The notes under the pieces are model-generated. The model saw only the letters and a program-made list of their open reading frames with translations. It did not search any database and was not told where the DNA came from. A DNA stretch of 64,000 bases from Cetorhinus maximus (Eukaryota): positions 23,312,001 through 23,376,000 of the forward strand of contig NC_135906.1 in NCBI RefSeq assembly GCF_964194155.1, in the 5' to 3' direction. Positions 8,368-60,609 of this stretch are shown piece by piece (the first letter of the stretch is position 1; each line of letters starts with the position of its first letter). Position numbers and translations under genes: made by a program.

Positions 8368-8704
8368 AGATAAAAGCAAAAAACTGTGGGTGCTGGAAAT
8401 CCAAAACAAAAATACCTGGAAAAACTCAGCAGGTCTGACAGCATCTGCAGAGAGGAACACAGTTAACATTTTGAGTCTGTACGACTCTTCAACAGAACTA
8501 AGGAAAAATAAAGAGGTGAAATATAAGCTGGTAAAATATAATATAAAAATAAATATAAGCCTCCCCTTAAACCAGCTTATATTTCACCTCTTTTCTATTT
8601 TTCCTTAGTTCTGTTGAAGAGTCATACAGACTCAAAACGTCAACTGTGTTCCCCTCAGCAGATGCTGTCAGACCTGCTGAGTTTTTCCAGGTACTAATGT
8701 TTTT
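8368..8704. mobile_element. Miniature palindromic Penelope pLTR insertion (two inverted hammerhead-bearing tails) in peroxiredoxin intron 1
   Basis: Inverted copies of the pLTR tail. 10-bp TSD ATGTTTACTT at 8358-8367 and 8705-8714. Confidence 0.85.
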
Positions 8705-9591
8705 ATGTTTACTTCACTGTTCCATGTCAATGATCCTAATCTCTAAGGGGGCTAATTTACATTTTTTTAGGTTACTGACAATGCTTTAACTAGGAGGTTG
8801 AATCTATTTGCTGGTTGGCCTTTTTTTTTTACCTACCTAGTAAAGTAAATGGGTGGTGATGAAGACTCCCTATGCCCAAGAACCATGGTTGTAGGAAATG
8901 CACAATAACTCTTTGTTGATCTAAAACAAGACCAGTGTACAAAACAAATTAGTTCTTCTGCAAATTTGAGCCTCAAACTGGGTGGGTTTATGTTTTGTAA
9001 CTTCTGCCACTGACTCTGCTGACTTTTACCTGGAAAGGCAGCCCTGTAGTGCCTTCTGAGAGTAAGGCCAGATATGAGCATTGACAGGCTATCCTGCTGC
9101 AGAGGACACCAGAATTGGGTCAATGAACACCCTTGGAGCAGGGTTCATTGCATAGAATAGATTAGAAATCCTGGCAGTAGTCCCTGCATAAAGTCAACAA
9201 TGTTTCCATTTCTGAGAATACTTGTTCCCAGCCCAGGCTGGGAGGCCAACTCCATGCTAAGTGTAAAGGAAGAAAATATTTTAACTATACTTCCTTGCAT
9301 GTGACTTTTTTTAAAATTTGAGCATAGTCTGTTACTCAGAACTTAGCTGCTGCAGCATTTAGTATGAGGTTTGGATCTGTTGGACTTTGGGCCAGGTCCT
9401 CTTGGGTTACTTAAAGCTGTAAATGTGTAATCCGACCTATGGGGCACCATAAACTGGTATGAATTCTTTCATAAGATGTCCAGGAGTGCCTGTTACAGTA
9501 ACTACTGTCCATCCCAGTGACTTAAATGCTGACTTTGCCTTGAATAACTCTCTCTCGCCTTCTCTTTTTCCCCATAAAGTAACTATTCAAA

Positions 9592-9697
9592 ATGGCAGCT
9601 GGAAATGCTAAAATTGGTCACCCTGCACCTGATTTCACTGCCAAGGCAGTGATGCCAAATGGAGAATTCCAGGACCTGACCCTCTCCAGTTACAAAG
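9592..9697 (+). CDS. prdx2: Peroxiredoxin coding exon (exon 2)
   Basis: Polypyrimidine tract and AG at 9578-9579; ATG at 9592; [15 protein letters not shown]...SSYK; donor G|GTAAAA. Confidence 0.93.
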
Positions 9698-12600
9698 GTA
9701 AAAACAATTGAGATACTGATTTATTTTTTTTTCTAGAGCCCCTTTTAAATGTTAACACTGTTTGCTGTATTGATTGTGGAGAAGTTTTTGCTTCAGTGTA
9801 TTGAATTGCAGTAATCTCTGAACCTGAACAGTACTTTGTCCTAATGCTGGAATCTGTGCAGAACAACTTTGTAGTAAATTGAAATACAAAGTCTGCTTTG
9901 GCTCTGAAGGCTGTACAGATCAGGTTGCTATTCTTTCCAGTATATATGATTAAGGGTGATCTAATTGTTTAAAACTGAAGATTTTGATTGGGTAGAAACT
10001 TTTTTTTGTGTGGGTTGGGAAGGTGCTGGCAAAATTGCAGACGTACCTCATATGCAATAATGACAGTTATAAAACTGCTTCCCTCCTGGCTGTAGAGGGT
10101 GGGGACAGTTGCTGAGTGGTTAGTTCTGCCATGAAAGCCTAAGTGATGGTGTTAATGGTTTCTGGCCAGTCAGGTGTGCACCTTTCGTAGGATAAACAAA
10201 GTGGTAGGATAGAGCCAGAAGCAAAGAATGAAGCTCTCTAATGGAGTTAATTTTAGACTGTTCTGTTTGTATATTGCAGCAGAGGCCATTTTATTAATTG
10301 CACCTGCACCAACTCTTGAAGGAGCAATCCAATTAGACCTGCCTATCCCTGGCCTTGTCCCATAGGTTTTGCAAAACCACCTGCTTCCACCACCTTTTCA
10401 GATGGTGCACTCTGGATCACAGCTTTGTTAATTTATTTAAAATTAAACACTTCTTACTGGAGAGTATTGGGTATGACTCTAGGTTCTTTTGGCATAGTAG
10501 CCTGCACCTTGGGATGAGCAGGGCTGCAGGGAATCAGATCCCTCTTTCTTTCAGTACAGGAAACCATTTGGCCAATCTTGTACAAGTTAAGTTGGAGTAA
10601 AAACTGTATTTTCCCCATAGTCCTATGTCTTGGCACAATTTTCCAAGGTTGATGCTGTTTCAGTCACATGCTATGGTAAAGTATTCCATGTTTCCAATAA
10701 GATGTCTTGTCCCTCCCTTTTTTGCTAGAAATTGTAAATTGACTCTCCAATAAGAAGTGAGCATGGAAATTATTTTAACAACTAAACCTCCACTTGGCTT
10801 TCTCAAATTTTGTGGAATAAATTGTTTTAGATGGCCTTAATCAGTATCTGAAGCTTAAACTGATCTTTCTCTTTCGTCCTGTCTCAGTTTATAAAATCAA
10901 ATTACAATTGACCATGAGGCTTTATTTACTTGGTGATTTTTGAGGCTTTTGATCCCTCTTTCAGTTCTCTTCCATGTTAAATTGCATTTGCCATCAATTT
11001 CATTTTTGATCACCTACCGAATATATTTTTAAGTTTTTGACAATTAGTTGTTTGGTAGTACAGAAGAGTATTGCTGAAGAGACACATCTAAGCTTTCTGG
11101 TACTCATCAGGACACTAGCAAGAATACTAATATAAAGGGGAAAGCCTTTTATATGGTGTGTGAAGTGATTGGTTGGCAAGTGGTATTGCCATGGAGAATG
11201 CACCACTGGTGACTGACAGTTAACTGCCAAGCCCATTGTTTGAAATTTAAACCAGGCAGCTTGGCCCTGATTGGTCAAGGCATTGATCTGAGGAATGAGT
11301 CAGCAAATGGCTGTCACTTTGAGCCTGTTTCAGCTAAACAAAATATGTACATGTTCCTTTCTGTGCAAAGAACAGGGCCCTGTGTATTAATATATGTAGT
11401 TTCCAGTACATGCAAATGCACCACACAGCAAGCCCAACTGGTAGTCTTAAATTGGTTGCCAGCATAATTCTTAGCACATTGGACAACATTTGCTAAATAA
11501 CTCTGAATCGCATCTAATGGTGGAGGCTGTTTTGCAAGTATGGGCTGGTTGGGTACAGTCTGTGCCCAGACTGTGAACTGTGGCTGGAGCATTCTTTTTG
11601 ATGCAATCTGCCAGTTTTTGGGATGTACAGCCTACACACCTAGCATTGCGCTGAAATTCATAGACCACATTACTCATGAGGCAGAACACCTTTTTTGGCT
11701 TGACAGCAGCATCCTGTTGGTGGTGACTGCCACTTGTGTTACTACTGCATATGAGCAGCATGGAACAGCTAGCTTCACCTGTTGCTCAAATTGGCAATAC
11801 CTTGCCTTTCCAGGGTAATCTGAGGTGGTCTCAGCACTTTTCAAGGCTGAAAGTGATGGCCTTAAACCCATTTGAGTTTACATGATGATATACTGTGTGA
11901 AATGATTGGTTATCCTGCAGGATGCCTTTATGCCCTATTTTGGCATCAAGCTTGCGTGGTATGAAAATGGCTCGGCCTTATTTACAAAGGTCCCAATATT
12001 TAATCATTCATGGGATGTGGGTGTCATTGGCCAGGCCAGCATTTATTGCCCTTATTCAGAGGGCATTTAAGAGTCAACCACATGTAAGCCATACCAGGTA
12101 AGGACAGTAGATTTCCTTCCCTAAAGGACAGGTGGATTTTTACCATCTCATATATATTGACCAGTGAAGGTGGACCATGGTAGAGAATCCTCTGGCAGAA
12201 TTCTCATTAATATGTCAAGGGAGGGGAGTTCATTTGACTGCTCCATTCATAAGTGAATTTGAGTGCAGGATGGAGCCCTTCAAGGCATGTAAGGAAAACT
12301 GTTACATGCAGCTGTGGTTTAAGCAAACATATCATCCACATATCAAGGGGTAGGAAGTTAGATGTCATTCCATCAAGGACACATTTCTCATGGAACCCAA
12401 CAAAGATGTTTGCAAGAGCTGGGCATAGAGGGGATCCCATGGCAACACCATTTATTTGGGCATACATGGTATCATTAAAACTGAACTCCCTGCATGAGTT
12501 GCTGAGTTTATAGTTCAATAAATACTAATTCACACAATGGTGGTGGGTCTAGATCAGCATGATATAGTGCTGCAGTGCAACTATATCCTTGACTTCCTTA

Positions 12601-15544: not shown

Positions 15545-18330
15545 ACTTGGGATTGAAGTGCAGAACTGCCTTTGGATCTAATGCTTGGCTCAATTGGAGC
15601 CTGGTTTGCAGGCAGCACCCTGTAGCTAATTGAATGTATTAAAATAATTACTTTAATGGCAGAGCCAATATTGGATCACTTATACCACCAGGTCACAGTA
15701 CATATGTTGGAACTTAATCTTCCACACAAGCTAACAATTCTACATCAGCGATTGAGGCATTCTTGGGTACGCAGTGCCACAGTAGTGAGGACATGATGAC
15801 TAGTGAAATTGAGCCAAGGTGGCTCTGCATTGACTTTCCCTAGAACTCGACCTAGATGAGCACTTGAAACACCATCAGCATTCAGGGCTACAGGCCAAAT
15901 GCTGGAAAAAGGGATTAAAATAGCTGGCACAGACATGATGGGCTGAAGGGCCTGTTTCTGTGCTGTATGACTCTGGCTAACTCCAGGAAACTTGATCAGC
16001 CATCTTTAATGCAACTAAGGATAAAGTTCCTGGTGATCCTAAGTGTTCAGGAAAGACTCTACAGGTCCATCGGCAGCTAGAGGGTGGACATTTCAAGTCC
16101 AATATGCCTGAGTCTGAGGAGTCCTACTGGATTTGAAACATTCATTCTTTTCTCTCGCTCCAGCTCTGAAGTTCCTATGCTAGCAGCAGATAGCCCTGAA
16201 AGTCAATGCCTTGGTGCAAAGGTCAGCGACCTTTCAGAAGTGGTATGCTAAGTCTTCATTTATTCACTGTAAGGATTTTGCATGCCAGTAATAGACCTCA
16301 AATTTATACGGTCTCATCAAAACAAAGGGTGCCAATCTTGCCACAAATTAGCCAGGTTTGCTGTTGTGAAATACAATGTCATAAGCACTGCCCATCTCTT
16401 CTAGCAATCCTTAAAGCTGAGAGTCAAAGCAGATCGAGTAAGAAGGAAATTCACGTCACTGGATTCATTACATTAATTCTGAATTGAAATTTTAGCGCAC
16501 AGGCTTTCTTAATAGATAGTCAAATTTGACTGTTGGGTTGCTGATTTTTGATCTTCAAGTAACTTTAAATCCCCTGATGGCAGGAGTACCATCTGGTGCC
16601 CCACACTTTCTGATATCAACACTTCATTCTTCAAAGTGGCTTAACAAAAGTTTCCACTGTATACTCCCACCCCCACCCTCCCCAAGCCCCCTTGTGCCAT
16701 GCGAGAGTTTTGGGCAACGAACTTCCTTTTGGGCAACAAACTTCCTTTCATGAGAAGCACAATATTTTGCAACAGCTGTCAAACCTGGAATGTAATTTAT
16801 ATCCACGCTCTCATTACTAACCACAGTCTATTAACAGTTGTCTGCTTTTGTTAACGTTCTTGCCACTCCACTTAAGGGTGTCTCAATGGTTTTCAGATGG
16901 GCAGTTTTTATTCTCAGTATGATTGCCTTTATTTGGCAAATTATTCAATATAACCTCTTTCCTAACTGCTGAGGAAAGGCTTTTATAATTCCCCATCTGT
17001 AAATGGCTTTTTTGCTATGCAATGCACTGCAATTTTGTAATTTCCTTGTTTCCTTCTGTGACTTGGTTTTTTTTAAAAATTGCTTTGATCTTTTTGAATG
17101 ATTCAGTCGTGTCCACTTCAAGAAAGGGTTTTTTTGTGCTTTGTTTGAAGGTAGTGCTGAACATTTGACATGCAACAAACAATCCTTTCGTGACAGACCG
17201 TCCTTATAAATAAATCCAAGTTTGTCTGAGAAGGCTGAAGTGAACAGACATCTAACTTTGCTTTCTTAGAAACTGATATTTTGTCAAATGTGCCCCTCCA
17301 ATTTACAGTGGAAAGTTCACAACCAGTGACATCACAACATCAAACACACCACACTCCTCCTTGCTACACGATACTGATGTAAGCAGGAAATTGGGACTTT
17401 AAAATATCCCAGTAATGAATAAAACACAGCAATTACTATTTAAACTCTATACATCTTTTATCAATGCATATACCTTCTTGTGATGAGTAAATGACAATTA
17501 ATTTTTAGAACTTTTTGTGTGCACTCCTTTAGTACATGTGCTGTAGATTGTGAGCCTCTGCCTTAATGGCTAGTTGATTCCAGCTACAAAAGTACTACAA
17601 CCCCCCAGCTATGTACTTAATGTATAGCTCTGCTAGCCTCAACCTAACCTCCTTGGACCCATAAGTGGAGTGTTCAGTTTGTATTGCAGATACAGTTCTA
17701 CAAGGGTAGGTTTACACCTTGAAAGTTTGGTGCCAGATTAAGTGAGTTCAATGTCGTGAGCACTCAACGCATTGAACGGTGCTCAACTTCTGAAATCCAG
17801 AATGCAGTGACAAAGAATAAGACGTTGGTCAGTTTTACTTCGTTACATTGGACATTTTGCCACCTGCAACTGAAAATGGGACACCATACCTTCAGTCATA
17901 CTTAAGTAAGCATTAAAAATGCCATGAGAACTAGACTAGTAGGTAGGCATAGCTCAGTGCTATTGGGTGACCTTTTTCACAGGTGTAGACAACATTAACT
18001 AGTGGCAGGCAGTTTGCCAACAAGATTAAAACTTGGGAGCCTAAAGTCACTTGTGCCATCACTCCACTCAAGTAGGCAGTTACCTGTAGAGTTCTGTCAG
18101 GATAGAGATGGGGGGAGGGGAGAGAAGAAACAAGAAATTCCAGAGTTTGCTACACTTCAGTCTGGTTGGTCATCACCAGAGTTTTCTTGAAGGCAAGGCA
18201 TCTTGTTTTCAATCAGATCACACGATAAGCAAGGCGGCTTTCGTGAATTTCAGCTGCTGTATGTAATATGCAAATAATTTCTATTGGAACACTGTTGCTA
18301 TGGAAACAAATCTGTTCAAGGGATTGTTCA

Positions 18331-20065
18331 AAGATAAAAACAAAAAACTGCGGATGCTGGAAATCCAAAACAAAAACAGAAATAACTGGAAAAACTCTGC
18401 AGGTCTGACAGCATCGGCGGAGAAGAGCAAAGTTCTTCAACAGAACTAAGTAGAAATACTTAGGGGTGAAATATAAGCTGGTTTAAGGCGGGGGGGGGGA
18501 GAGAAGAGGGGGGTTGTTGGGACAAGCAAGCAGTGATAGGAGGAGATAACCAAAAGATGTCACAGACAAAAGAACAAAGGTGATGATATTATCTAAAAGA
18601 ATGTGCTAATTAAGAGTGGAGAGCAGGACAAGCAAGGTAGCTCTAGTGGGGGTGGGGTGAAATAAACGATGGGTGGAATACATTTAAAAATAATGGAAAT
18701 AGGTGGGAAAAGAAAAATCTATATAAATTATTGGAAAAAACAAAAAGGAGGGGGAAGAAACGGAAAGGGGGTAGGGATGGAGGAGGGAGTTCAAGATCTA
18801 AAGTTGTTGAACTCAATATTCAATCCGGAAGGCTCTAAAGTGCCTAGTCGGAAGATGAGGTGCTGTTCCTCCAGTTTGCGTTGAGCTTCACTGGAACAAT
18901 GCAGCAAGCCAAGGACAGACATGTGGGCATGAGAGCAGGGTGGAGTGTTAAAATGGCAAGCGACAGGGAGGTCTGGGTAATGCTTGTGGACAGACCGAAG
19001 GTGTTCTGCAAAGCGGTCACTCAGTCTGCATTTGGTCTCTCCAATGTAGAGGAAACCGCATTGGGAGCAACGAATGCAGTAGACCAAGTTGGGGGAAATG
19101 CAAGTGAAATGCTGCTTCACTGGAAAGGAGAGTTTGGGCCCTTGGACAGTGAGGAGAGAGGAAGTGAAGGGGCAGGTGTTGCATATTCTGTGTTTGTATG
19201 GGGAGGTGCTGTAGGAGGGGGTTGAGGAGTAGGGGGTGATGGAGGAGTGGACCAGGGTGTCACGGAGGGAACGATCCCTACGGAATGCATTTCCCCCAAC
19301 TTAGTCTACTGCATTCGCTGCTCCCAATGCGGTTTCCTTTACATTGGAGAGACCAAATGCAGACTGGGTGACCGCTTTGCAGAACACCTTCGGTCTGTCC
19401 GCAAGCATTATCCAGACCTCCCTGTCGCTTGCCATTTTAACACTCCACCCTGCTCTCTTGCCCACATGTCTGTCCTTGGCTTGCTGCATTGTTCCAGTGA
19501 AGCTCAACGCAAACTGGAGGAACAGCACCTCATCTTCCGACTAGGCACTTTACAGCCTTCCGGACTGAATATTGAGTTCAACAACTTTAGATCTTGAACT
19601 TCCTCCTCCATCCCCACCCCCTTTCCGTTCCTTCCCCCTCCTTTTTGTTTTTTCCAATAATTTATATAGATTTTTCTTTTCCCACCTATTTCCATTATTT
19701 TTAAATGTATTCCACCCATCGTTTATTTCACCCCACTCCCACTAGAGCTACCTTGCTTGTCCTGCTCTCCACTCTTAATTAGCACATTCTTTTAGATAAT
19801 ATCACCACCTTCAACACCTCTTTGTCCTTTTGTCTGTGACATCTTTTGGTTATCTCCTCCTATCACTGCTTGCTTGTCCCAACAACCCCCCACCCCCCTT
19901 CTCTTCCCCCATCCACCCCCCCCTCTTAAACCAGCTTATATTTCACCCTTTTCCTATTTCTACTTAGTTCTGTTGAAGGGTCATGAGGACTCGAAACGTC
20001 AACTTTGCTCTTCTCCGCCGATGCTGCCAGACCTGCTGAGTTTTTCCAGGTATTTCTGTTTTTGT
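18331..20065. mobile_element. Palindromic Penelope-like insertion (inverted GIY-YIG 3' end plus pLTR on both arms)
   Basis: Arms at about 18360-19102 (-) and 19286-20065 (+) encode the same GIY-YIG peptide. 13-bp TSD AAGGGATTGTTCA at 18318-18330 and 20066-20078. Confidence 0.92.
19966..20004 (+). ncRNA. Minimal hammerhead ribozyme motif, CUGUUGA core variant
   Basis: AGTT-CTGTTGA-A-GGGTC-ATGAG-GACTC-GAAACGTC-AACT. Confidence 0.6.
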
Positions 20066-20705
20066 AAGGGATTGTTCATGTCTGCTGGAGGAGATTTTAT
20101 TTCTCCCTAAGCTATAGCTTTTTGAAACCAGGGTCTGAGGGGTTAAAAATATCAACTTTCTGTCTGTTATCTCCCATGCCCAGCCACTCCAATGCTCCCT
20201 TGGCTAACCTCCCACTTTTTAACCTCCATAAACTTGAGCTCATCCTAACACTCACCAAGTGCAATTCATCTATCACCCCTGTGCCCACTGATCTACATTT
20301 CCAATCCTCGTTTTGGAATCCCTCCATGGCCTCATCCCTCCCCATCTCTCTAATCTCCTACAGTCCTTGGATCTCTGGGCTCTCTTAGATCCCTGCTTCC
20401 AGAGTCTGCTTGAGCCTGAGCAAGTAGCCAGAGAAAGAGATAGAGTCTGTGACATGAGAGTGGAATTTGTGACAGGAGCCTTAAACATTTAACTGTTCAC
20501 TTCCCAACATGCAGTTGGAGGAAAAGTGCAACAAAAAAAAAATAACTTGCATTTCCATAGCATCTTTCACATCCACAGGTTGTCCCAAAGCCCCTTACAG
20601 CCAAATAGCACATTTGAAATGTAGCCACTTACAGGTTTCATGGCAGCCAAATTGTGCACAACAAGCTCCCACAAACGATAATGACCAGATAATGTTTTTT
20701 GTGTT

Positions 20706-20837
20706 AAAAGCAAAAAAACTGCGGATGCTGGAAATCCAAAACAAAAATAAAAATACCTGGAAAAACTCAGCAGGTCTGACAGCATCTGCGGAGAGGAACA
20801 CAGTTAACGTTTTGAGTCTGTGTGACTCTTCAACAGA
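20706..20837 (-). mobile_element. Penelope pLTR tail fragment (hammerhead motif plus tail) inserted in a DeuSINE
   Basis: Same tail as the other copies. 9-bp TSD TTTTGTGTT at 20697-20705 and 20838-20846. Confidence 0.8.
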
Positions 20838-21499
20838 TTTTGTGTTGTTGGTTAAGGGCCAGGACACCAGGGAGAACTATCCTGTCTTCTTCAAAATAGT
20901 GCCATGGAATTGTTTATATTCATCAGAGAGGGCAGACGGGGCCACAGAAGCTGTGACCTAACCATGACTGACGGTGTGGAGGTGATTGTGGAGTCAAGGG
21001 AGGTGATGGTCAGGTTGAGTCAAGTGGTGCCATCACCGTATCAGTGGAAGCTGACTCTAGACCTAATGGATCAGTGGGTAGTGGCAGAGCCCAGAAGAAG
21101 AGGCTGCAGACGGTGCCAAACATGGGCCCGGGGGGGCTAGACGGGGCCAGGCTAGGTGTTACAATTGGGGTCCTCAAGTTTTGCACATGCAGCAGCCAGA
21201 GATGTAGACCTGGAAGACAGGGTTTAACAAAATATCGGAACTATCAGCCTGAAGGTTCGATTTTTTTAAAGCTGGTCTGTCAGGTCAGTTTCACTAGTTA
21301 CTGCGTTGCTGCTTCTGATCTTTGTGCAGCTTTGCGGTTCCCTTTTTTTTTTTAGTTTTTGAAAAGCCCACCAGAAAACCACAAAGCTGCCTGTAGGTCA
21401 TTAGCAGAGCAGCAACTGTCTGGAGAATGCTCTCAGTTAAAAAATGCTAAGTGAACTCCATTGTAATTTTACAACCAAATGGATGCTGTGTGTATGTGT

Positions 21500-25952: not shown

Positions 25953-27768
25953 CGTTGTGAGAAAGATACATATCTTAACATTGAGAGCGGAGGTCAGGAA
26001 GTTCAACTCCCGATGAACCTTGGAGCTTTTGCGCATTTGCATATCAGGAGCGGGCTGCACATGCACAGATCAGCATTTTTACGTTCTTTGGTCTCAGAGT
26101 GCCTGTGCATAAAGAAAAAATGGTGCAAAAACCTGGGTCACGTGACCAAGAGCAGAGTGCCATGGAAGACTAGAGTTCCAATCAGGAGATAGGGAGAGGT
26201 CCTAAAGGGGAGAGGAGACAGGGAGAGGTCCCAAAGGGGAGAGGGGACAGTGAGAGGTCCCAAAGGGGAGAGGGGACAGGGAGAGGTCCCAAAGGGGAGA
26301 GGGGACAGGGAGAGGTCCCAAAGCGGAGCGAGGACAAGGAGACGTACTAAAGGGGAGAGGAGACAGTGAGAGGTCCCAAAGGGGAGAGGGGACAGGGAGA
26401 GGTCCCAAAGGGGAGAGGGGACAGGGAGAGGTCCCAAAGCGGAGCGAGGACAAGGAGACGTTCTAAAGGGGAGAGGGGACAGGGAAAGGTCCCCAAAGGA
26501 GGGAGAGGTCCTAAAGGGGAGAAGGGACAGGGAGAGATCCTAAAGGGGAGTGGGGACAGGGAGAGGTCCTAAAGGGGAGAGGGGACAGGGAGAGGTCCCA
26601 AAGGGGAGAGGGGACAGGGAGAGGTCCCAAAGCGGAGCGAGGACAAGGAGACGTTCTAAAGGGAAGAGGAGACAGTGAGAGGTCCCAAAGGGGAGAGGGG
26701 ACAGGGAGAGGTCCCAAAGGGGAGAGGGGACAGGGAGAGGTCCCAAAGCGGAGCGAGGACAAGGAGACGTTCTAAAGGGGAGAGGGGACAGGGAAAGGTC
26801 CCCAAAGGAGGGAGAGGTCCTAAAGGGGAGAAGGGACAGGGAGAGATCCTAAAGGGGAGTGGGGACAGGGAGAGGTCCTAAAGGGGAGAGGGGACAGGGA
26901 GAGGTCCCAAAGGGGGGAGGGGACAGGGAAAGGTCCTAAAGGGAAGAGGGGACAGGGAGAGGTTCCAAAGCAGAGAGGGGACAAGGAGAGGTCCAAAAAA
27001 AGAGTCCCAGAGAGAGGATAGGGACAGGAAAAATGTCCCCGTTCAGTTAAAAAAGAGAGAAGGAGAGAAACAGGCTTCAAACAGGAAAATGGCTGCAGGA
27101 AGCAGGCCTTAGTGAAGAAGGCAGCCAAAGTTTGGTGATTCCATGCTGTGGGCCACTGGGGCAAAGGTACCTCTTTGGGCCAGTCGTGCTCTGCTTAGCC
27201 TGCCCAAAGAGCTGATGTTGTGCTTGTGGGTTGACGCTTGAGTGCACACTTGGGAATCCAGGGGAACAGAATCTCAGGAGAAGAGATTGAAACCTTGCAA
27301 GGTGGGCTGTTGTTGATGCTGTCCGGGTTGGAGCCACTTTTGGAGGGTATTCCCAGATCTTCAAAGGTGATGGCTGGAATTCCTCATGAGAGACACAGGG
27401 ATTCCGTGAAATTGATCGACTCGCAGTGTTTACTGTCGTCTAGGTGGAGAAATCCATGGACTCTGCCTTGGTCGCATCTGCCACTTATTGTGTAGTGTGA
27501 TGTATTTGACCACAGCTTTCTTGTTAATTCACATGTACCTCATATTGACCATGAATGTTGAGTATAAGATACATATTATAAATTGTTTTATCTTTCTGAC
27601 CTTGGATAGTAAACTTTATTTTTGTTTGTTCAAAACCCATGCAATCTTGTGGCTTTATTCACTGAACAAGTGTCTTAAATCTCAAATGCTGTGCACTTTA
27701 AACAAAATGTTATTGGTCCCTAACCTAACCTTACCAAAACATTTGGGGTCTGGTCAAGGATCATAACA
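25953..27768 (+). mobile_element. Probable solo LTR (Gypsy-like) containing a minisatellite, inserted in a DeuSINE
   Basis: Termini CGTTGTGA...TCATAACA (imperfect TG..CA terminal inverted repeat). The flanking minus-strand DeuSINE is interrupted exactly here. AGTAAA poly(A)-like signal at about 27608. Confidence 0.55.
26190..27000. repeat. Purine-rich 29-bp minisatellite (GGGAGAGGTCCCAAAGGGGAGAGGGGACA)n with a 309-bp higher-order repeat
   Basis: About 27 units; identical ORF translations recur at a 309-bp offset (26202/26511, 26366/26675). Confidence 0.92.
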
Positions 27769-27999
27769 GCTGGAAGACAGCACCTCTGACAATGGAGCTC
27801 TTCCTCGTTACTGCCCTGGACTGTCATGTACAAATAGAAGTCCCTAATCCTTAATTTGTTGAGACTTCCAGTCATGTCCTATTCATCTTCCCCTTTTTTT
27901 CTACTAAACAGCACTTTGTAGTCCCCCAAATTGATGGCAGAGTTCAACACTATTGGGTTGAAAACATGGGAAAACAAATTGCAAGTGGCTCAAATGTTG

Positions 28000-30178
28000 T
28001 TCAAACCTCTCCCTGGACCATGACCCCACTACTGAACATCAAGCCATTGTTTCCAGGACTGTCACTGATCTCATCTCCTCTGGAGATCTTCCTTCCACAG
28101 CTTCCAACCTGATAGTCGCCCAACCTCGGACGGCCCGCTTCTACCTCCTACCCAAAATCCACAAACAGGACTGTCCCGGCAGACCGATCGTGTCAGCCTG
28201 TTCCTGTCCCACGGGACTCAGTTCTCGCTATCTTGACTCCCTTCTCTCTCCCCTTGTCCAGTCCCTTCCCACCTACATCCGTGATTCCTCTGACACCTTA
28301 CGTCACATCAGCAATTTCCAGTTCGCTGGCCCCAACTGCCTCCTCTTCACCATGGACGTCCAATCCCTCTGCACCTCCATCCCCCACCGGGATGGTCTGA
28401 GGGCTCTCTGCTTCTTCCTTGAACAGAGGCCCGAACAATCCCCATCCACCACTACTCTCCTCCGTCTGGCTGAACTTGTTCTCACACTGAACAATTTCTC
28501 CTTTAACTCCTCTCACTTCCTCCAAATAAAAGGTGTGGCTATGGGTACCCGCATGGGCCCCAGTTATGCCTGTCTCTTTATGGGGTATGTGGAACATTCC
28601 TTGTTCCAGTCCTACTCCGGCCCCCTCTCACAACTCTTTCTCCGGTACATTGATGATTACTTCGGTGCTGCTTTATGCTCTCGTCGGGACCTGGAAAAAT
28701 TTATTAATTTTGCTTCCAGTCTCCACCCCTCCATCATTTTCACATGGTCCATCTCTGACACTTCCTTTCCCTTCCTTGACCTCTCTGTCTCAATTTCTGG
28801 TGATAGACTGTCCACCAATATCCATTACAAGCCCACCAACTCCCACAGCTACCTCGACTACAGCTCCTCACACCCCGCTTCCTGTAAGGACTCCATCCCA
28901 TTCTCTCAGTTCCTTCGCCTCCGTCGCATCTGTTCTGATGATGCCACTTTCAAAAACAGTTCCTCTGACATGTCCTCCTTCTTCCTTAACTGAGGTTTTC
29001 CACCCACGGTAGTGGACAGGGCCCTCAACCGTGTCCGGCCCATCTCCCGCGCATCCGCCCTCATGCCTTCTCCTCCCTCCCAGAAACATAATAGGGTCCC
29101 CCTTGTCCTCACTTATCACCCCACCAGCCTCCGCATTCAAAGGATCATCCTCCGCCATTTCCGCCAACTCCAGCATGATGCCACCACCAAACACATCTTC
29201 CCTTCACCCCCACTGGCAGCATTCCGTAGGGATCGTTCCCTCCGTGACACCCTGGTCCACTCCTCCATCACCCCCTACTCCTCCTCCCACGGCACCTCCC
29301 CATGCAAACGCAGAAGATGCAACACCCGCCCCTTCACTTCCTTTCTCCTCACCGTCCAAGGGCCCAAACACTCCTTTCAAGTGAAGCAGCATTTCACTTG
29401 CACTTCCCCCAACTTAGTCTACTGCATTCGTTGCTCCCAATGCGGTTTCCTCTACACTGGAGAGACCAAACGCAGACGGGGTGACCGCTTTGCAGAACAC
29501 CTTCGGTCTATCCGCAAGCATGACCCAAACCTCCCTGTCGCTTGCCATTTCAACACTCCACCCTGCTCTCTTGCCCACATGTCTGTCCTTGGCTTGCTGC
29601 ATTGTTCCAGTGAAGCTCAACGCAAACTGGAGGAACAGCACCTCATCTTCCGACTAGGCACTTTACAGCCTTCCGGACTGAATATTGAGTTCGACAATTT
29701 TAGATGTTGAACTCTCTCATCCATCCCCACCCCCTTCCCATTTCTTCCCCCTCCTTTTTATTTTTTCCAATAATTTATATAGATTTTTTCTTTTCCCACC
29801 CATTTCCATTATTTTTAAATGTATTTCCACCATTGTTTATTTCTACCTTTTAGTATTCCCCCACCCCCACTAGAGCTATCTGTACCTTATCTGTCCTGTC
29901 TTATACTCTTAATTAGCACATTCCTTTAGATAATATCACCACCTTCAGAGACCTCTTTGGTCTTTTGTCTGTGACAGCTTTTGGTTATCTCTTCCTATCA
30001 CTGGCTGCTTGTCCCAACAAACCCCCCCCCCCTTAAACCAGCTTATATTTCACCCCTTTCCTATTTTTACTTAGTTCTGTTGAAGGGTCATGAGGACTCG
30101 AAACGTCATCTGTACTCTTCTCCGCCGATGCTGCCAGACCTGCTGAGTTTTTCCAGGTATTTCTGTTTCTGTTTTTGT
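28000..30178 (+). mobile_element. 5'-truncated Penelope-like retroelement (RT + GIY-YIG endonuclease) with 3' pseudo-LTR and hammerhead motif
   Basis: In-frame RFYLLPKIHK...GRPIVSAC, GVAMGTRMGPSYA, LRYIDD, then NLVYCIRCSQCGFLYTGETKR...RFAEH...GLN (GIY-YIG). One in-frame TGA at 28991-28993 (likely CGA decay). 10-bp TSD TCAAATGTTG at 27990-27999 and 30179-30188. Confidence 0.92.
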
Positions 30179-31010
30179 TCAAATGTTGGGCTTGTTTTCA
30201 GACATGGAGGGACTGTGAACCTCAACCAGAAACAACTTTGAAGATCTATCTCATGCAGCAATCAGGAGACAGCAAATTCTCTTCTATCTTAACTGATGTA
30301 GCTGATGTAACTGGAGGGGGCGCATGGTGGGATGTTCTCAGCACTGATGTTTGACCTTTGACATTTGAGTCGTATTAATCTCATTCCACCTTTTTTAAAA
30401 AAATATTATTGCTCATCAGCCATCAGGGATGAATTTGTCAAGGAAACAGGCCCAGTAGTCAACAAAGCATAATTGAGACAGAAAATGCAGGAGGTTATTT
30501 ACAGCAGGGAAATAGGACTGACTGGATTCCAAAGAGACCAGGCATGGGCTTGATGGGCTGATTGGCCACCTTCTGTGCCCTAATGACTCTAAGAGGTTCT
30601 GGCAACATTTATAAAGGGAAAAAGCAGGCTTTCAGTGTAGACTCATTATCTGAACTGAAATTGAGAAGAAGGCCCATCACTAACTGAGAGATTAGGACTT
30701 GCAAGCAACATCCACATCTGGACAATAAACCTAAAACCTAATCAACAAAACGGAGGAGGATGGGAAAGAACATCAATTGCCCAATTAAAGATAATATTTG
30801 ACTTAAAGGCATGCAGCATCACATGTCTATTACTATGGTAACACTAAGCTTTTTTAAAGGTAGTATGGGCACTGACTCATGGTGAATAGGGTTTTATAGA
30901 TTTGCACCTTCCAGGTTTGAGACTACACGTCGATCACCATTTTCACTAAATGACATTTGTATCAGTTGTGGCTCAGTGGTCAACACTTTACCTCTGAGTC
31001 TGAAGGCTGT

Positions 31011-34105: not shown

Positions 34106-34126
34106 TGAAGCAACATAACCATTTTA

Positions 34127-34625
34127 CTATAATAAAAGCAAAATACAGCGAATTCTGGAAATCTGAAACAAAAACAAAAATAGCTGGAAAAACTCAGCAG
34201 GTCTGACAGCATCTGTGGAGAGGAACACAGTTGACATTTCGAGTCCGTATGACTCTTCATCAGAACTAAGGAAATAGAGAAATGAGGTGAAATATAAGCT
34301 GGTAGAGGGGTGTGGGATAGGTAGAGCTGGATAGAGGGCCAGTGATAGGTGGAGGCAAAGAGATTGCCAAAGATGTCATAGACAGAAGGACGAAGGGGTG
34401 TTGACGGTGGTGATATTATCTAAGGGATGTGCTAATTGGGACATTAAGGGTAGCAAGCAGGACAAGCTAGTGGCAGATGGCCCTAGTGGGGGTGGGTGGG
34501 GGGAAGGGCTAAAAGGTGGAGATGAAACAATAGATCAAAGTAAATTTAAAAATAGGTGGGAAAAGAAAAATATATATTTTTTTAATTATAAATTATTGGG
34601 AAAAGGGGGATCGGAAAGGGGGTGG
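34127..34625 (-). mobile_element. Penelope pLTR (3' UTR) copy with canonical CUGAUGA hammerhead core
   Basis: Homologous to 29720-30170. TSD CCATTTTA at 34119-34126 and 34626-34633. Confidence 0.8.
34229..34267 (-). ncRNA. Minimal type I hammerhead ribozyme motif (Penelope pLTR)
   Basis: AGTT-CTGATGA-A-GAGTC-ATACG-GACTC-GAAA-TGTC-AACT: stem I AGTT/AACT, canonical core, 5-bp stem II, GUC triplet. Confidence 0.7.
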
Positions 34626-35366
34626 CCATTTTAAAATGGACTCAAAGCAACCCGTCACTTGCTATCAAAGTGTAAAGACAGAGATTGAGGGATAACTGGG
34701 AATGAGCAATCACACCAACATTTTCTGATCATCTCAGGAAGGATCGTCACCCTCAACAGATTCTATTTACATTTAGAGGCTATCGAGTGGTTTGCAAACT
34801 TCTGGAGCACAAGAGCAAGAAAGGGAACCAGTCAGGCAAGGGGTGCTTGCAAGGTCAAAGTGGGAGAGTGCAAGGTTTCCTTCAGAAAGCTGGGAGAGAG
34901 GTACCAAGGCTGAGATTGGTGAGGGAGGGAGTCCCAGAGGTAGGTAGAGTCACCACAGCTCCTATCTGTGGAATATGGGAGGAGGGATGGAAAAGGGTGC
35001 AGATAAGGAGGAGATAGAGGAGGTGGGGTGAGAGGGAGACAGAGAGATGAGACAAGCTCATGGGAGAATTTGAGGGTAAAGAGAAGAACCTGAACGTCTA
35101 TTCCCTTGAGGAACGAAGAGTCCAGAAGGATGGAAATGAGTTGAACTGGTTATGAGTGTAGGTGAGTAAGTGGACTGTTGTGTTCTGGATAATTCTCTGC
35201 AAACAAATGGAATATGTTCCAGCCTTGTGCCTTTTTGAATTACTGGAGAGCTTAGGGAGATTTAGTTTCCAATTGCTTTCTCCATGCCAACATCTCGGCC
35301 AATCAGTGTCAACTTGTATTGGGAGAGACGTTGGTGTAGTGTCAGTATCAACTTGTATTGGGGGAG

Positions 35367-45499: not shown

Positions 45500-46120
45500 T
45501 CAATGACCTGTTGATCTCGGAGGGGTTTGATTGATCTTATGCAACCTGGTGGGCTCTCTAAGATCATTTAGATCCTGGTAGACTCACTGTGACTCTATTA
45601 GTCCTGGAGAATTTCAATAATCCTATGGATACTGGGGGAGGGTGGGGGTTCAATAATCCTATGGATTCTGGAAGTATCTCAGTGATCCTAGAGGGGGCTC
45701 AATGATCTGATGGATTTTGGAGGGGTCTCAATGATCCTATGGATCCTGGGAGGGGAGATCTCAATGATCCTATGGATTCTGGAAGGGTCTCAATGATCCT
45801 ATGGATGCTGAAATGGATGGGGGGGAGGTCTCAATGATTCTAGAGGAGTCTCAATGATCTTATGGACACTGGAGGTGGGGTCTCAATGATCCTATGGATT
45901 CTGGAAGGGTCTCAATGAGCCTATGGATCCTGAAATGGGTGGGGGGGAGGTCTCAATGACTCTAGAGGAGTCTCAATGATCTTATGGACACTGGAGGTGG
46001 GGTCTCAATGATCTTATGGATTCTGGAAGGGTCTCAATGATCTTATGGATCCTGGGGGCATGGGTGGTCTCAGTGATCCTATGGATCTTGGTGTGCTCCC
46101 AATGATTCTATGGGTCCCTG
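45500..46120. repeat. Degenerate minisatellite of about 30 bp (GGTCTCAATGATCCTATGGATCCTGGAGG)n
   Basis: TCAATGATCCTATGGAT core repeated more than 15 times with variable G-rich spacers. Confidence 0.85.
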
Positions 46121-47590
46121 TGGGCTTTCTAAGATCTAGGGACTTCAGGCTATGGTGACCAATGGTATCTTCCTTTTTGGTTCTCTGCCTGAAGGCAGGT
46201 CCTTGGTGATTATTTGTCAAACAATGGCTAAGTGCCATGATCTTTTACTACGGCTGGGGCAAGGAGGCAGGTCCTAAGTCTACTTCAGCTGGAACAGGGA
46301 TCGAGTCCCATGCAGTTGGCATGAATCTGATCTGTATGTTAGCTAGCTAGCCGACTGAGCTAACCAGCTGCCACAGCCCTCACTCTCCCACCCGAACCAA
46401 TAGTATATGTTCACCAGTAAAAGACAGCAGATACCTGACAGTAGCTGATCCACACTAAACAACAGTCGTGAGACCCGTCACCCCAGTCAGGAGCTGAGGA
46501 GAGAAAAATGAAGCGAAAGAGACTTTGAAAAAAAAACGTCTTTGCAAACTGTAAGGGACCTTGCCTTTACGGGAAAGAATGTGGGACAATATTCTAAACA
46601 CGTTAAACGAACAATAATTCCTTGATGCTACAAACAAATCATTTTGGAACAGTTCAAGTTATTTGATGATCATATAATTATTGTTTCTTTGAAAAGGCAT
46701 GTTGTGGCCCATCCAGCATTCTATGTATTGTGTTACACTGCTGGGAAACAAAGGAAACAAGCCAGCAGCACCTACACATTCTCATTGAAGGGCATGCTCC
46801 AGTTATACAGAGACACTGGGGTTTTTTTTTCTTGTCCCATTTATGCTGCTATTACTTAAAGAGCCTCAGATGATATTCATATCAGTTAGACTCCACACAT
46901 ACAGACCAACGATTACCATATTAGTTACAGTGGTCAAAATAGCTGTACAATACAGCAAAATTACATGGCTCACCATTACTTCCCTCCTTCGGAAGCTGCT
47001 ATCTTTTGCTGCCGGGATGGGCCTGTAGGTGCGGACTGCTCGTTTGGAACCTCAACCAAGTGACCATTCTTCAATGAGCGAGCCGAAACATTAAGGCTGG
47101 GGGTTTGTGATTCTCTCTGGTGTTCCCAAGTCCAGGATCAATTAAAATGGACAAGCGGAAATTTGTGGGCGGGTGAGCACAGAGGCAGAAAGCCTTGGCT
47201 CAAGGGTCATCATGCTATCTGGCTGCAGAGGGCATCACGGGTGAGGAAGTTTCTATCTTTCGTCGGAAGTCCGCACATACATAGGACATACAAAACTCAC
47301 TCTAAACCCACTCACTTATGCAGAGTTAATATTGGGCCCTCATGGTTCCCAGCAGGGCGGACTGGATCAGCAATTGGGGAACCTTAGACAATTGTTCCCA
47401 CCCTGGGCCAGGAGCAGTGAGGCAAACTGTGAGATATGCTAACTCTGCTTCCCTGTAGATGCAATTGAACAGACTTCCAAAGGTAATGCAGGGCAGTGAG
47501 GTTCTGCCTCAGTGCAGTTAAATAGGGCTTGGGTTTTGAGACTTGCTGTGTAAGATCTGAAGGAGCATTTGAGAATGCCTCATATTTCTC

Positions 47591-48288: not shown

Positions 48289-50859
48289 ATTTCATTTAGC
48301 TGATCCATCTCCATCTGCCTTAGCTCAGTGGGTAGCACTCTGCCATCTCTAAGTCAGAAGATTGTGGGTTCAGGTCTCACTTCAGAGACTTGAGCACAAA
48401 AGTTCCAGGCTGCCACCTCAGTGTAGTACGGAGGGAGTACTGCACTGGTACATGAAACCAAGGCCTCCTCTGCCCACTCAGCTGGGCATCAACGATTTCA
48501 TGGCACTATTTGAAAAGGAATGTGGGTGTTCTCCCCAGCATCCTGACCAATACTTATCCCTCACCATCACCATACCAAATTATTTATTCCATTGGCTCTT
48601 GTGGGATCTTGCTGTGCTCAAATCAGCTGCCATGCTCCCCACGTCACAGCAGTGAATACATTTTGAATATTCTTAGATAGTTGTAAAGACTTTTGTGACA
48701 CCCTGAAGGCATGGAAAGCCCTACCTAAATGAAAAAAAAAGCCCAGATTATCTGGTCACATCACATTGCTGTTTGTGGGTACTGGCTGTGTGAATATTGC
48801 CTACCACAATTCCTACATTATAACAGTCACAACACTTCCAAAGTATTTCATTGGCAGTGAAGTACGTTGGGACATTCTGAGGGCATGAAAGACACTACAC
48901 AAATGCAAATTCTATGCATATATTTAAAGCTGTGGTAATGTCAGATATTCCACTCACTTTCTTAAAGACCCATTTTCCCTGTCACTTAACATTTAAGTGT
49001 GAATTGGATTGTGCATTTGAGATTATTGTGAGTTGCCAAGGAGATATGTCAGCAAGTATCATAATACTTTAGCAGCAGACATTGAAGTATTAAGCCAAAT
49101 AAGACTACAATGTTTTTTTCATTCGTTCATGGGATGAGGGCGTTGCTGCCTACGCCAGCATTTATTTCCCATCCCTAATTGCCCCTTGAGAAGGTGGTGG
49201 TGAACTGCCTTCTTGAACTGCTGCAGTCCATGTGGTGTAGGTACACCCACAGTGCTGTTAGGGAGGGAGTTCCAGGATTTTGACCCAGCGACAGTGAAGG
49301 AACGACGATATAGTGTAATTACTCCTTTGCTAATATTCTATAAGGTCTTCTTCACACATTGTGTTCTAATCTTAAAGGAACATTAAGAGATTCTTGGCTA
49401 TTGTGAAAATAGTATTGTTTCTCTGACCTTTACATAATAAGAACATAAGAAATAAGAGCAGGAGCAGGTCATTCAGCTCCTCGAGCCTGCTCTGCCACCC
49501 AAAAAAGATCATGGCTGATCTGAATGTGGCCTTAACTCCACTTTTCTATCTATTCCCCATAACCCTTGACTCCTTTGTTGATCAAAAGTCTAAAGAAATT
49601 AAAGTTCATAAGAATCTGATTTTGGATTTTAGAAGATGCAACTCACGATCGGAAATGCTTGTCTGGTCGCTATGAAGAGAAACTAGCATGTTAACAACAC
49701 TAATTGTAACAACGTATTATGCAATATGGTTACTGAACAGGATATTCCTGGTTTGATGCCTGATCTGAGCTGAGCTGGCTGATCTCGGCCAAACCAGGAG
49801 TTAGCATTGCATGGAAAGTACAGTACAGAAACAGGCCATTCAGTCCAGCTGCTCCACACTGGTGCTTATGCTCCACACAAGCTGCCTCCTGCCCTTCTTC
49901 ATCTCACCCTATCAGCAGATCTTTCCATTCCTTTCTCCCTCATGTGTTTGTCTAATTTTCTCTTCAATGCATCTATGCATTTTTGCCTCAACTACTCCTT
50001 GTGGTGGCAAATTCCACCATTCTTATCATTCTCTGGGTAAAGAGGTTTCTCCTAAATTCACCAGTGGATTTATTAGTAACTCTCTTAGATTTATGGCCTC
50101 TAGTTCTGGTCTCCACAACAAGTGGAAATATCTGCTCTACATCTTTTTTATTCTTTCATGGGATGTGGGTGACGCCAGCATTTGTTGCCCATCCATGATT
50201 GCCATAATTGACTGGCTTGCCAAACCATTTCAGAGGGCAGTTAAGAGTCAACCACATTGCTGTGGGTCTGGAGTCACATGTAGGCCAGACTAGGTAAGGA
50301 TGGCAGATTTCCTTCCCTAAAGGACAATTAGTGAACCAGATGGGTTTTTATGACAATCAATGATATGGTCACCATCTACCCTAGCAAATGCCTTCATAAC
50401 TTTAAAAGCCTAAATCTAGTATCCCCTCAGTCTTAAGAGAAACAGGGTTAACATTACAGGTCAAGGACCTTTGAAATTTTTTGTTCGTTGGTGCTGTTGG
50501 ATAGAGAGGTCAAGTGCGTACGTGTGGTGGTGCATGGCACTGAATGTGGATCGCAGGATGCAGCAAGAAGAGCAGTTCAAGGAATGTTGAATATCCCAGG
50601 GATACCTGTACATATATGAGGATGGAATTTCAGCTAAAATCCAAATGGAATAAGTCAGGGCCGGAGACAGTTGCTGAGGAAGGAGAAGTGGCTGTGAAAG
50701 CGAGATTTGGTAGACACCTTATCAAACACGAGGTTGGAAATGGAAAGCAATGAAGGTGAACAAGGTAAAGAAGACAAGCAGAAATCCTGTCTTAGAGCAG
50801 AGTGGAACTTCTTTAAGGCAAGGCGCTCCTGGAAGAGAAGTGGCAGTGAGTTAAACACT

Positions 50860-50992
50860 AAAATAAAACCAAAATACTATAGATTCTGGAAATCTGAAAT
50901 AAAAAACAGAAAATGCTGGAAAGACTCAGCAGGTCTGGCAGCATCTGTGGAGGGGGAAACAGAGTTAACGATTCAGGTCAAGGACCTTTTCC
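50860..50992 (-). mobile_element. Older Penelope pLTR tail fragment
   Basis: CTCAGCAGGTCTGGCAGCATCTGTGGAG tail with a partial hammerhead (AGGTC-CTT-GACCT stem II). Confidence 0.6.
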
Positions 50993-58304: not shown

Positions 58305-58574
58305 TCCCCCCCTTCCACTTCTGGTGGGAGTTTGTGGTCTGCCCTTGTACACTGGACAGTTCTCTCTGCCTCTGTTTACCCGGTGTACAGGCTTGTAAAG
58401 TTCTGTCGAGATTTAAGTCCCACTTGCAGACCGGACCAGGGAGTTCCAGTGCGATTTACAAAAGCTTCTTTTAACACCCCCACCCCCCCACCCAACCCCA
58501 CCCCAAAACCACCCCCTCCCCTTCTTCCTTCCTTCTGAAGAAAAGCTTCAGTCTTTTTCGCGTTAGTCTGTGTC

Positions 58575-59534
58575 TCAGAAGCCCTGTAGTTTTTGAGTTA
58601 ATACTATTTGGCAGCCACTGCTGATGTGAGTCATGACTTTCTGTTTGAGCTGAGAGACCTGGTCCCTCAAGACGGTGGCGGTGGAGGCCAGGCCGGCGTT
58701 GTCGGATTTCAGCGTCTTCACCTTGTCTTCCAGCCTGGCGATCCGCTCCAGCTTCCTCTTCCTGCACTTGGAGGCGGCCACCCGGTTCCTCATGCGCTTC
58801 CTCTCGGCCTTGATGCGCTCCTGGTTCTCCATGTCGATGGGGGAGAGCGGCGGGGTCTCGCCGCGGCTCTGCACCTCGGGCACGATCTGGGGTTCCTCCT
58901 TGAGGGTCTGCAGGCGGGGGTGGCCCACGGGCACCGCCGGCAGGCTGTAGGCGTGGGGCTGGGGCAGGTAGCTGATGGTGGCGGTGGGGTGGTAGCCGCC
59001 GCCGCCGCCGCCCGCCGAGAGGGGGCTGGAGGTGTTGTAGGCGGTGAGGTTGGTGTAGACGGGGGGCACCTCGGCGGGCACCGAGGAGCCGTAGGCATTG
59101 CTGGGCGCGGCGCTGCAACTCATGCCAGGGTTGGGGATGGACACGTTGGGCGCCACATGGTTGATCTTGTGCAGCTCCTCCAGCGCCTTGACGAAACCGT
59201 CTGCGAACCCTTCCTGCTCGTCTGTGATATTCCTCCCGCAGAAGTATTGCCCGGGGGTGGGCGTGGTGGTGATCACCCCATTGCTGGATTGGATGATCAG
59301 GCGCTCCAGCTCCGGAGAGGCCAGCTTCAGCAGCCCCACGTCCGGGCCACTCAGCAGGTTGTCCTCCACGCCCCGCAGGTGAGGCTTGAGGGACCTGGAC
59401 GGGTCGACCAGGTTGAGGTTGAGGTTCTGCTTCAAGTATTTGGAGCTGTAGTCATGGAGACCGCTCTCTGAACTCGCGTAGCCGGCCAGGAAGGTATCAT
59501 CGTGGTAGAATGGTTGCTCCATTTTTGTAGACAT
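58575..59534 (-). CDS. junb: Transcription factor JunB (AP-1 bZIP), intronless, 319 aa
   Basis: N-terminus [13 protein letters not shown] (JunB signature [13 protein letters not shown]), [49 protein letters not shown], and b[42 protein letters not shown]...KQKVMTH. CpG-island-like composition. Convergent with a peroxiredoxin as in the human JUNB-PRDX2 locus. Confidence 0.93.
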
Positions 59535-59990
59535 AGAAAAGCAACACAAAAATCTGTAGTGCTGGGAGGGAGAGGGATAGAGAGCTGTTCTTAAAGAGTC
59601 CCCTCTTGGGTAAGGACCTGTTCTGGAGAAGGGCAAGTGCAAAGTCCTCTCCCCAGCAGCCAGAATCCGTCCTCCTTATCACCCTCTCTTCACAAATAAC
59701 AACAAACTGTCCGCAGCAGCGACTTCTCCCCTTTCAAGCCAAGGCGTCTTCACAAAATCCGCAAGCGGAGTTGGTAAACACAAGTGTACTTTGTTTTTTT
59801 TTCCTTTCCCCCCTCTACTCCTCCTCCTCCTCTCTCTCTCTCTCTTGTTTTGCTTGTGGATGGATGTTAACTGGTGATGGTGCGAACTGGCAGCCAGTAT
59901 TCTCTGTTCCAGGAAGCGAGCTGGGCGTCTCTGGGTCTGTACTACAGTAACATTCTCCAGTCTAATGCACTTTCTTGTGAAGCCATGACT

Positions 59991-60035
59991 TCTTAAATAG
60001 CCGAGGTGATGTCACTATTCCTGCCCACCCATTGG
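59991..60035 (-). promoter_or_regulatory. junB proximal promoter: CCAAT, GT-box, TGACATCA (ATF/Jun site), CTATTTAAG (TATA/MEF2-like)
   Basis: The minus strand reads CCAATGGGTGGGCAGGAATAGTGACATCACCTCGGCTATTTAAGA, about 460 nt upstream of the ATG. Confidence 0.7.
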
Positions 60036-60062
60036 TTCGGTGTGTGTCTGTGTGTTTCTCTG

Positions 60063-60087
60063 CTCTCTCTCTCTCTCTCTCTCTCTC
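60063..60087. repeat. (CT)n microsatellite immediately upstream of the junB promoter
   Basis: Direct reading. Confidence 0.9.
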
Positions 60088-60424
60088 CTGACTGTAGATG
60101 CCACCAGAGGGCTTCCGACATACTTTTAACCCTCTTCTAGCTGAAGGTCCTTCAGCGAGGATTAAGATATTTTCTACTGCACTCATATTTGTGGGCGCAT
60201 TATGTTTTTTTTTGGGGGGGGGGATGTGTTAAGTACAGAATCACCCGGCTACCATCCCCATATATAAAACTTGCATTTATATAGCCACTTTCATGAACCT
60301 CCCCGAGCACTTGCAGCCAATGGTGCACTCTTATTTTTGAAGTGTGGTCACTGTAGGGAACGCGCGTCAGCCAAATTCGCGCACAGCAGGATCCCACAAG
60401 CGTCAACGTGATAATAACCAGATC

Positions 60425-60609
60425 TAAACAAAAAGCTAAAAGCTAAAAACAAAAAGATAAAAACCTTAAACCAGCTTATATTTCACCCCTCTCCTAACTA
60501 TGCTTCAGTTCTGCCGAAGGGCCGTGAAGGCTCGAAACGTTAACTGATTTCTTCTCCACCGATGCTGCCAGACCTGCTGAGTTTTTCCAGGTAATTCTGT
60601 TTTTGTTTT
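60425..60609 (+). mobile_element. Penelope pLTR tail with hammerhead motif, inserted in a DeuSINE upstream of junB
   Basis: 13-bp TSD TAATAACCAGATC at 60412-60424 and 60610-60622. Confidence 0.85.
60505..60547 (+). ncRNA. Minimal hammerhead ribozyme motif, CUGCCGA core variant
   Basis: TCAGTT-CTGCCGA-A-GGGCC-GTGAA-GGCTC-GAAACGTT-AACTGA; 6-bp stem I and compensatory stem II. Confidence 0.55.

Follow-up and report, generated by a model that had tools for sequence, protein, structure and literature searches.

Hammerhead ribozymes lacking core adenine A6 in Neptune-like Penelope elements of Cetorhinus maximus

A stretch of 64,000 nucleotides from the genome of Cetorhinus maximus (NCBI RefSeq assembly GCF_964194155.1, contig NC_135906.1, forward-strand positions 23,312,001 to 23,376,000; hereafter the window) carries a series of short motifs that we identify as minimal type I hammerhead ribozymes located in the pseudo long terminal repeat (pLTR) of a Neptune-like Penelope element. 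Most of them read U or C at core position 6, where the canonical core has A, which raises the question of whether A6 was lost through decay of individual copies or is absent from the consensus of a subfamily, and whether such a ribozyme still cuts. The original prediction, made from the letters of the window, regarded the substitution as a subfamily consensus and proposed either a variant catalytic core or transposition with an attenuated or dead ribozyme. As most copies in the window are decayed, the window alone cannot separate consensus from decay, whereas the genome-wide data do. On the sequence evidence given below, we consider it reasonably probable that the variant hammerhead is attenuated but would still cut at its normal site; cleavage is probably slow and would probably occur only as a dimer or with the help of the element's protein.

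Position 6 across the genome and its history

An exact pattern derived from the window copies, with the core fixed and positions 6 and 7 left free, was searched across the 3.99-Gb genome and returned 41,379 matches compared to 0 for the reversed control pattern, so that the motif does not reflect chance. Within this set, which favours young families, A6 was found in 5,602 copies (13.5%) and C6 in 14,394 (34.8%), while U6 and G6 together make up the remaining 21,383, mostly U6; the first 100 among the matches listed, counted by eye, comprised 52 U, 35 C, 10 A and 3 G. With 86.5% of the exact-pattern copies devoid of A6, the view that a non-A position 6 is a subfamily consensus and not decay was borne out. 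An unbiased sample of 77 random stretches of 10 kb each yielded 88 matches, 61 of them covering position 6 (32 A, 15 U, 12 C and 2 G). The pLTR end occurs ~114 times per Mb in the random sample, corresponding to roughly 450,000 genome copies, and the family forms one ladder-like lineage. CpG decay was rejected as the origin of U6 and C6, since it cannot make a pyrimidine from A and the states follow subfamilies.

A search with the reverse transcriptase (RT) of the window returned many 924-codon open frames. Twenty stretches with open frames of 905–924 codons, picked for these long frames, were examined, and every ribozyme in all 20 has C6; CUGAUGA is thus not the form of the young copies. The youngest copies do lack A6, as had been proposed, with the correction that they carry C6 and not U6, the U6 copies of the window belonging to middle-aged slices of the tree described below.

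The hammerheads flank intact RT–GIY-YIG frames at a spacing of ~3.29 kb, a location in the pLTRs. A 917-aa open reading frame (ORF) matches RVT_1 (E 8e-7) and GIY-YIG (E 4e-4), both just short of the Pfam cut-offs, and carries a CX2-5CxxC linker at residue 783 in the same frame as the RT and the C-terminal GIY-YIG domain. Compared by RT, linker and GIY-YIG layout with the Neptune clade (PMC8557442), the element appears Neptune-like, Nematis having the same linker.

To follow position 6 over time, those 98 of 211 full-motif copies with at least 450 nt of element were placed in a FastTree phylogeny of 1,023 columns that excluded the ribozyme and CpG sites. The tree is a ladder with several weakly supported backbone nodes; its root on an A6/A7 copy was our choice and is consistent with divergence. 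Two long-branch rows were removed and the other 96 were cut by hand into nine slices (S1–S9), along which positions 6-7 read AA, AU, UU, CC and CU in turn, while mean slice divergence drops from 4.0% (A6) to 0.3% (youngest C6). This order points to a single master lineage in which core position 6 would have passed from A through U to C while the lineage stayed active.

In all nine slices C3, U4, G5, G8, A9, G12, A13, A14 and A15.1–U16.1 are unchanged, position 17 (H17) is only U or C, and the ACGU palindrome in place of stem III (15.1–16.1), the extra A after A9 and loop II position 2 are invariant. A6 is absent from slices S3–S9, and because it is missing in most copies the motif is best described as a core variant and not as a canonical member of the hammerhead class. 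The motif TTATATTT, ~20–30 nt upstream of stem I (window 19939–19946), is invariant in the nine slices amid a fast-changing untranslated region (UTR) and is a candidate promoter element or tertiary contact.

After the loss of A6, changes were found at 0 of 15 core sites compared to 99 of 336 UTR sites (Fisher p 0.008), and in the coding region at 45 of 645 sites. Substitutions within the ribozyme fell on N7, on three positions of loop II, on position 17, which is never G, and on four stem positions, all of them free positions of a hammerhead. All four stem changes retain pairing, and stems I and II are paired in 171 of 171 cells over 19 recurrent haplotypes, these rows being related and reflecting the history of one lineage. 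Covariation, proposed as a check on the motif, is therefore real but thin, with one double change in stem II (U-A to C-G, dated to the C6 stage) and three one-sided changes within that lineage. The U.G intermediate is present in 336 copies compared to 102 with the C.A mismatch, and about four fifths of the U.G copies among the matches listed carry one and the same loop variant, seldom found in copies with the C.A mismatch, suggesting that the wobble form is itself a transposing subfamily.

This record makes it very improbable that the ribozyme died with A6 and hitchhikes, its conservation being chance over a short lineage. The analysis covers only 15 sites in one lineage and hand-cut slices, and hammerhead-free Penelope clades proliferate well (PMC8557442), as such a reading would have it; however, ~7 core changes would be expected at the UTR rate where 0 were observed, stem changes keep pairing, wobble copies outnumber mismatched ones, and insertion ends pile up at the cut site, as detailed below. 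Of the two options in the original prediction, a dead ribozyme is thus disfavoured both by the constraint after A6 loss and by the surplus of insertion ends on the scissile bond.

As an outside control, we collected motifs of the same architecture, including the same extra A, from metagenome contigs, and A6 was present in 83 of 85 matches, which came from 80 of the 121 loci. Minimal hammerheads of this kind with a longer, covarying stem II are numerous in these contigs; C6 and U6 occur once each. The control argues against a fully active variant core in which position 6 is freed by the extra A after A9, a tertiary contact, a metal (Mn) or a protein, a reading we regard as improbable. It would accommodate the two changes at position 6 and the occurrence of G there, the invariance of loop II position 2 and of the upstream TTATATTT, the restoration of A6C activity by Mn (PMC7151607), and a scissile-bond peak that is clearest in the youngest C6 family; but most copies read through one or two ribozymes, as slow cutting predicts, while re-ligated circles would look alike.

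In a folding comparison covering the slices other than S3, the 4-bp duplex of a putative dimer was predicted to be weak on its own (−1.7 kcal/mol). Selection of U6 as an off-switch, through pairing of GUUGA with UCAAC, was rejected, the probability of this register being at most 0.06 and the idea not being transferable to C6. As to unit arrangement, the young insertions L136, L129 and L135 contain two to more than two tandem units, and the 5' and 3' repeats of a single insertion share rare variants, e.g. in L130. Among 13 repeat pairs within single young insertions, six share a variant and one shows a one-sided change; such shared variants were not used as evidence, since a circle and a template jump fit equally. 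At the young locus L133 both ribozymes carry G12 to A, in a stretch that has an assembly gap and may be a duplication.

Insertion ends at the predicted cut site

The 3' ends of young insertions lie 62–75 nt beyond the predicted cut site, or ~115 nt beyond it with a longer tail. Most copies read through the cut site, long copies crossing one or two ribozymes, which means that most templates had either escaped cutting or been re-ligated by the time they were copied. Templates that had been cut were sought among head-to-head insertions with two short arms, of which 510 have U6/C6 tails and 46 the youngest tail. Scoring covered all 46 of the latter and the first 50 of the former and gave 89 distinct junctions with 178 arm ends; the scissile-bond position, scored as the first base after position 17, had been fixed beforehand. 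Of the 178 ends, 26 lie exactly on the scissile bond compared to 5 and 3 at the two neighbouring positions, with a null of 0.1–3.8% under flat or decaying ends and microhomology weighting. The peak persists in arms without microhomology (12 of 76) and in family-matched scoring (again 26 of 178), and when one junction that recurs at six unrelated loci is left out, 20 of 166 ends remain (P 4e-5). Several junctions have both arms ending at the scissile bond, one of them (L356) blunt. By tail, the counts are 19 of 102 for C6 families, 4 of 46 for the U6/C6 transition, 2 of 14 for U6 and 1 of 16 for unassigned tails, and by a rough estimate ends at the site occur in ~1% of C6 copies. These 5' ends are likely the genomic footprint of cut RNA.

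A +6 peak in one re-scoring was discarded as an artefact of a smaller template set. Many inversion junctions (L216, L220, L226, L233, L239) and older copies (L158, L185) start with the 5' strand of stem I, which lies ~37 nt upstream of the cut site; either stem I microhomology or a transcription start could account for this.

Several observations weigh against an attenuated ribozyme that still cuts. The tail is likewise constrained (12 of 65 sites changed after A6 loss), so that low change alone is no proof of catalysis. When 25-nt flanks are included, the predicted structure is usually one other than the hammerhead. At 0.3 mM Mg, the A6C change lowered the activity of one ribozyme by about five orders of magnitude (PMC7151607), and a mutational scan of a different hammerhead found low activity for every single change in the CUGA turn (PMC9901934). 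U6-era tails have only 6 of 60 ends at the scissile bond, and no peak is seen in the older A6-rich families (35 of 98 junctions scored, with 2 of their 70 arm ends at the bond), in a scoring that is noisy because many calls are shortened by old mutations, one of the two hits being a mis-call by eye; this absence of an A6-family peak runs opposite to the simple expectation. Further peaks at +5 (18 ends) and −8 (10 ends) lie at palindromes, which indicates that junction chemistry shapes the histogram. A direct junction count (75 at the site, 31 at +4) was dropped as evidence, being largely microhomology: most of the 30 junctions inspected at the site and the 15 at +4 are inversions joined by it. 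Finally, arm ends are in excess over the whole interval from 0 to +8, a spread that trimming of cut ends would explain, as would stalling within stem I.

In an alternative account, the ribozyme would no longer cut, and its fold and core would be retained as a signal by which the element's protein binds or primes; the ends at position 0 would then reflect a transcription start or stalling of the RT where it meets stem I. The adjacent tail, the site of RT start, is constrained as well, catalytic mutants still insert in vitro (PMC11167929), the ends raised over +2 to +8 overlap stem I, and the older A6-rich families are without a peak. We nevertheless judge this explanation rather unlikely, as the histogram peaks precisely at the scissile bond and falls off sharply to either side, in families that differ in the letters there, several junctions have both arms at the bond (with L356 blunt), and catalytic G8 and G12 as well as the not-G rule at position 17 are preserved.

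For the preferred attenuated, still cutting hammerhead, a mechanism can be sketched from the biochemistry of one Penelope element, whose protein begins copying the RNA downstream of the hammerhead, extends both strands, has no need of cleavage in vitro and switches the hammerhead on, with uncut RNA as the main template (PMC11167929). Reverse transcription would start in the tail and so would have to cross the ribozyme, and a cut template would yield only a dead-end insert of 70–115 nt. As a cut 3' ribozyme wastes the template, slow cutting would cost little or even help: a slow ribozyme would spare most templates, and the few cut ones would leave the observed scissile-bond ends. A natural A6C hammerhead is indeed slow in Mg (PMC3088659, PMC7151607), and Mn rescues its activity (PMC7151607). 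Some need for cleavage, either RNA-unit definition or the formation of circles that restore the tandem layout, would keep the other core sites fixed. For the missing A6-family peak, our guess is that rapid cleavage at an early stage might eliminate such RNAs ahead of protein binding. Somewhat short of an even chance, in our estimate, is the fuller proposal that the lineage has used a pyrimidine-6 hammerhead throughout its recent history, tuned to fire late in the ribonucleoprotein, with the scissile-bond insertions as fossils of germ-line cleavage.

Hammerhead copies in the window

The copies from which the analysis started are given with their insertions, six of which are flanked by target-site duplications (TSDs) of 8–13 bp.

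8358..8714, no single strand: head-to-head two-armed Penelope insertion (pLTR ends only); 10-bp TSD at 8358-8367 and 8705-8714
8461..8499, minus: U6 hammerhead, decayed (G12 to A, stem III ATGT); nearest slice S3
8607..8645, plus: U6 hammerhead, decayed (G12 to A); slice S3
18318..20078, no single strand: two-armed insertion with endonuclease-domain fragments and two pLTRs; 13-bp TSD at 18318-18330 and 20066-20078
18431..18447, minus: U6 hammerhead without 22 nt (stem II to position 17); single case
19966..20004, plus: intact U6 hammerhead with CUGUUGA, 5-bp stem II, ACGU palindrome and C17; identical to slice S5; predicted cut between 20000 and 20001
20697..20846, minus: short 5'-truncated insertion; 9-bp TSD
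20802-20836, minus: U6 hammerhead without the 5' strand of stem I, G12 to A; inside insertion 20697..20846
27990..30188, plus: 5'-truncated element with 3' pLTR; 10-bp TSD; RT and GIY-YIG coding region ~28000-29710 with one stop at 28991-28993
30073..30111, plus: U6 hammerhead, core intact, one stem I mismatch; slice S4
34119..34633, minus: pLTR insertion; 8-bp TSD; slice S2
34229-34267, minus: sole A6 hammerhead of the window, stem III decayed to ATGT; inside insertion 34119..34633
50857..50991, minus: stub of an older Penelope family with stem II, damaged GAAA and tail; no CUGNNGA
60412..60622, plus: young insertion with inverted tail; 13-bp TSD; nearest slice S8
60505-60547, plus: intact C6 hammerhead, CUGCCGA; inside young insertion 60412..60622

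The motif or part of it is present at every place initially listed, on the strands given, and the tally of position 6 was correct: CUGUUGA occurs six times (at 8461, 8607, 19966, 20802, 30073 and, in the copy with a deletion, 18431-18447), CUGCCGA and CUGAUGA once each. Wherever a window copy holds stem II, the stem is paired. The proposed consensus GAAACGT(C/T)AACT is exact in only two of eight copies (19966 and 60505), and the stem III palindrome ACGT is kept in the intact copies but decayed to ATGT at 34229 and 8461. What had been taken for a partial copy at 50963 retains remnants of stem II and tail but belongs to the older-family stub, in which CUGNNGA is absent; a second older-family stub at 50439-50472 (minus) resembles it. 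The suggested check against the Rfam hammerhead model did not recover the motif: a scan of the window at E up to 5 gave 11 matches, none to the hammerhead family.

The 22-nt deletion in the U6 copy at 18431-18447 has its 3' breakpoint precisely on the predicted scissile bond, without microhomology, and the other arm of the insertion, at 19966, carries an intact copy; the gap could stem from a template jump off a cut end or from a later deletion, and no second case was found among the loci compared. The young C6 insertion at 60412-60622 lies ~0.8 kb upstream of the start codon of an intronless Jun-family bZIP gene (58575-59615, minus; Pfam Jun E 4e-75). The window also contains a tandem array with a 29-bp unit (26046-27137) and a degenerate array with units of ~29-32 and 61 bp (45522-46126).

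Relation to known hammerheads and significance

The association of Penelope elements with hammerheads and the architecture itself are already known, and A6C is known from one phage; new here are the A to U to C series, the constraint after A6 loss, the outside control and the likely footprint at the cut site. Like the minimal hammerheads in metazoan Penelope pLTRs (PMC4209133), the present motif is of type I with a 4-bp stem I, an extra nucleotide between 9 and 10.1, G10.1–C11.1 and a palindromic 15.2–16.2 replacing stem III, and it sits in both pLTRs with thousands of lone copies. It differs in having U or C at position 6 in most young copies, the accessible text of that study naming only a U3–A8 core variant and reporting no in vivo evidence of cleavage. 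The hammerhead of bacteriophage Bcep176 has the same A6C core substitution (PMC3088659, PMC7151607), and an engineered mutant from its study has the CUGCUGA core of the youngest elements here (Naghdi 2020, PMC7151607). In contrast to that one phage sequence, which is not a dimer-type retroelement ribozyme, the present genome holds >14,000 exact C6 copies, has U6 in about half of the copies and offers a dated series starting from A6. No natural A6U hammerhead and no non-A6 Penelope case was found in searches of the literature, where the short-stem-III variants of Lunse et al. may list such cores; the accessible parts of PMC5737381, PMC12192606 and preprint 10.64898/2026.07.22.740005 contain nothing on position 6.

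The Poseidon element PAc of Anolis (PMC11167929) resembles the present one in that reverse transcription from two sites downstream of the hammerhead defines the tail, extension proceeds on both strands and uncut RNA serves as the principal template. Unlike the genomic ends described here, no reads in the available text on PAc, which belongs to a different clade, began or ended at its cut site, and its ORF starts inside the ribozyme whereas the present one starts ~150 nt downstream. More generally, Penelope hammerheads are described as weak in vitro, dispensable for reconstituted insertion and without cut ends in RNA reads (PMC4209133, PMC11167929).

Searches that demand CUGAnGA would miss most young copies here, and hammerhead counts in such genomes may therefore be too low. 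The genome of Cetorhinus maximus provides a dated natural series of A6, U6 and C6 cores in one lineage, in which a trade-off between cutting and transposing is directly assayable, and the junction method, which would read in vivo cleavage from DNA alone, is applicable to any genome with young Penelope elements.

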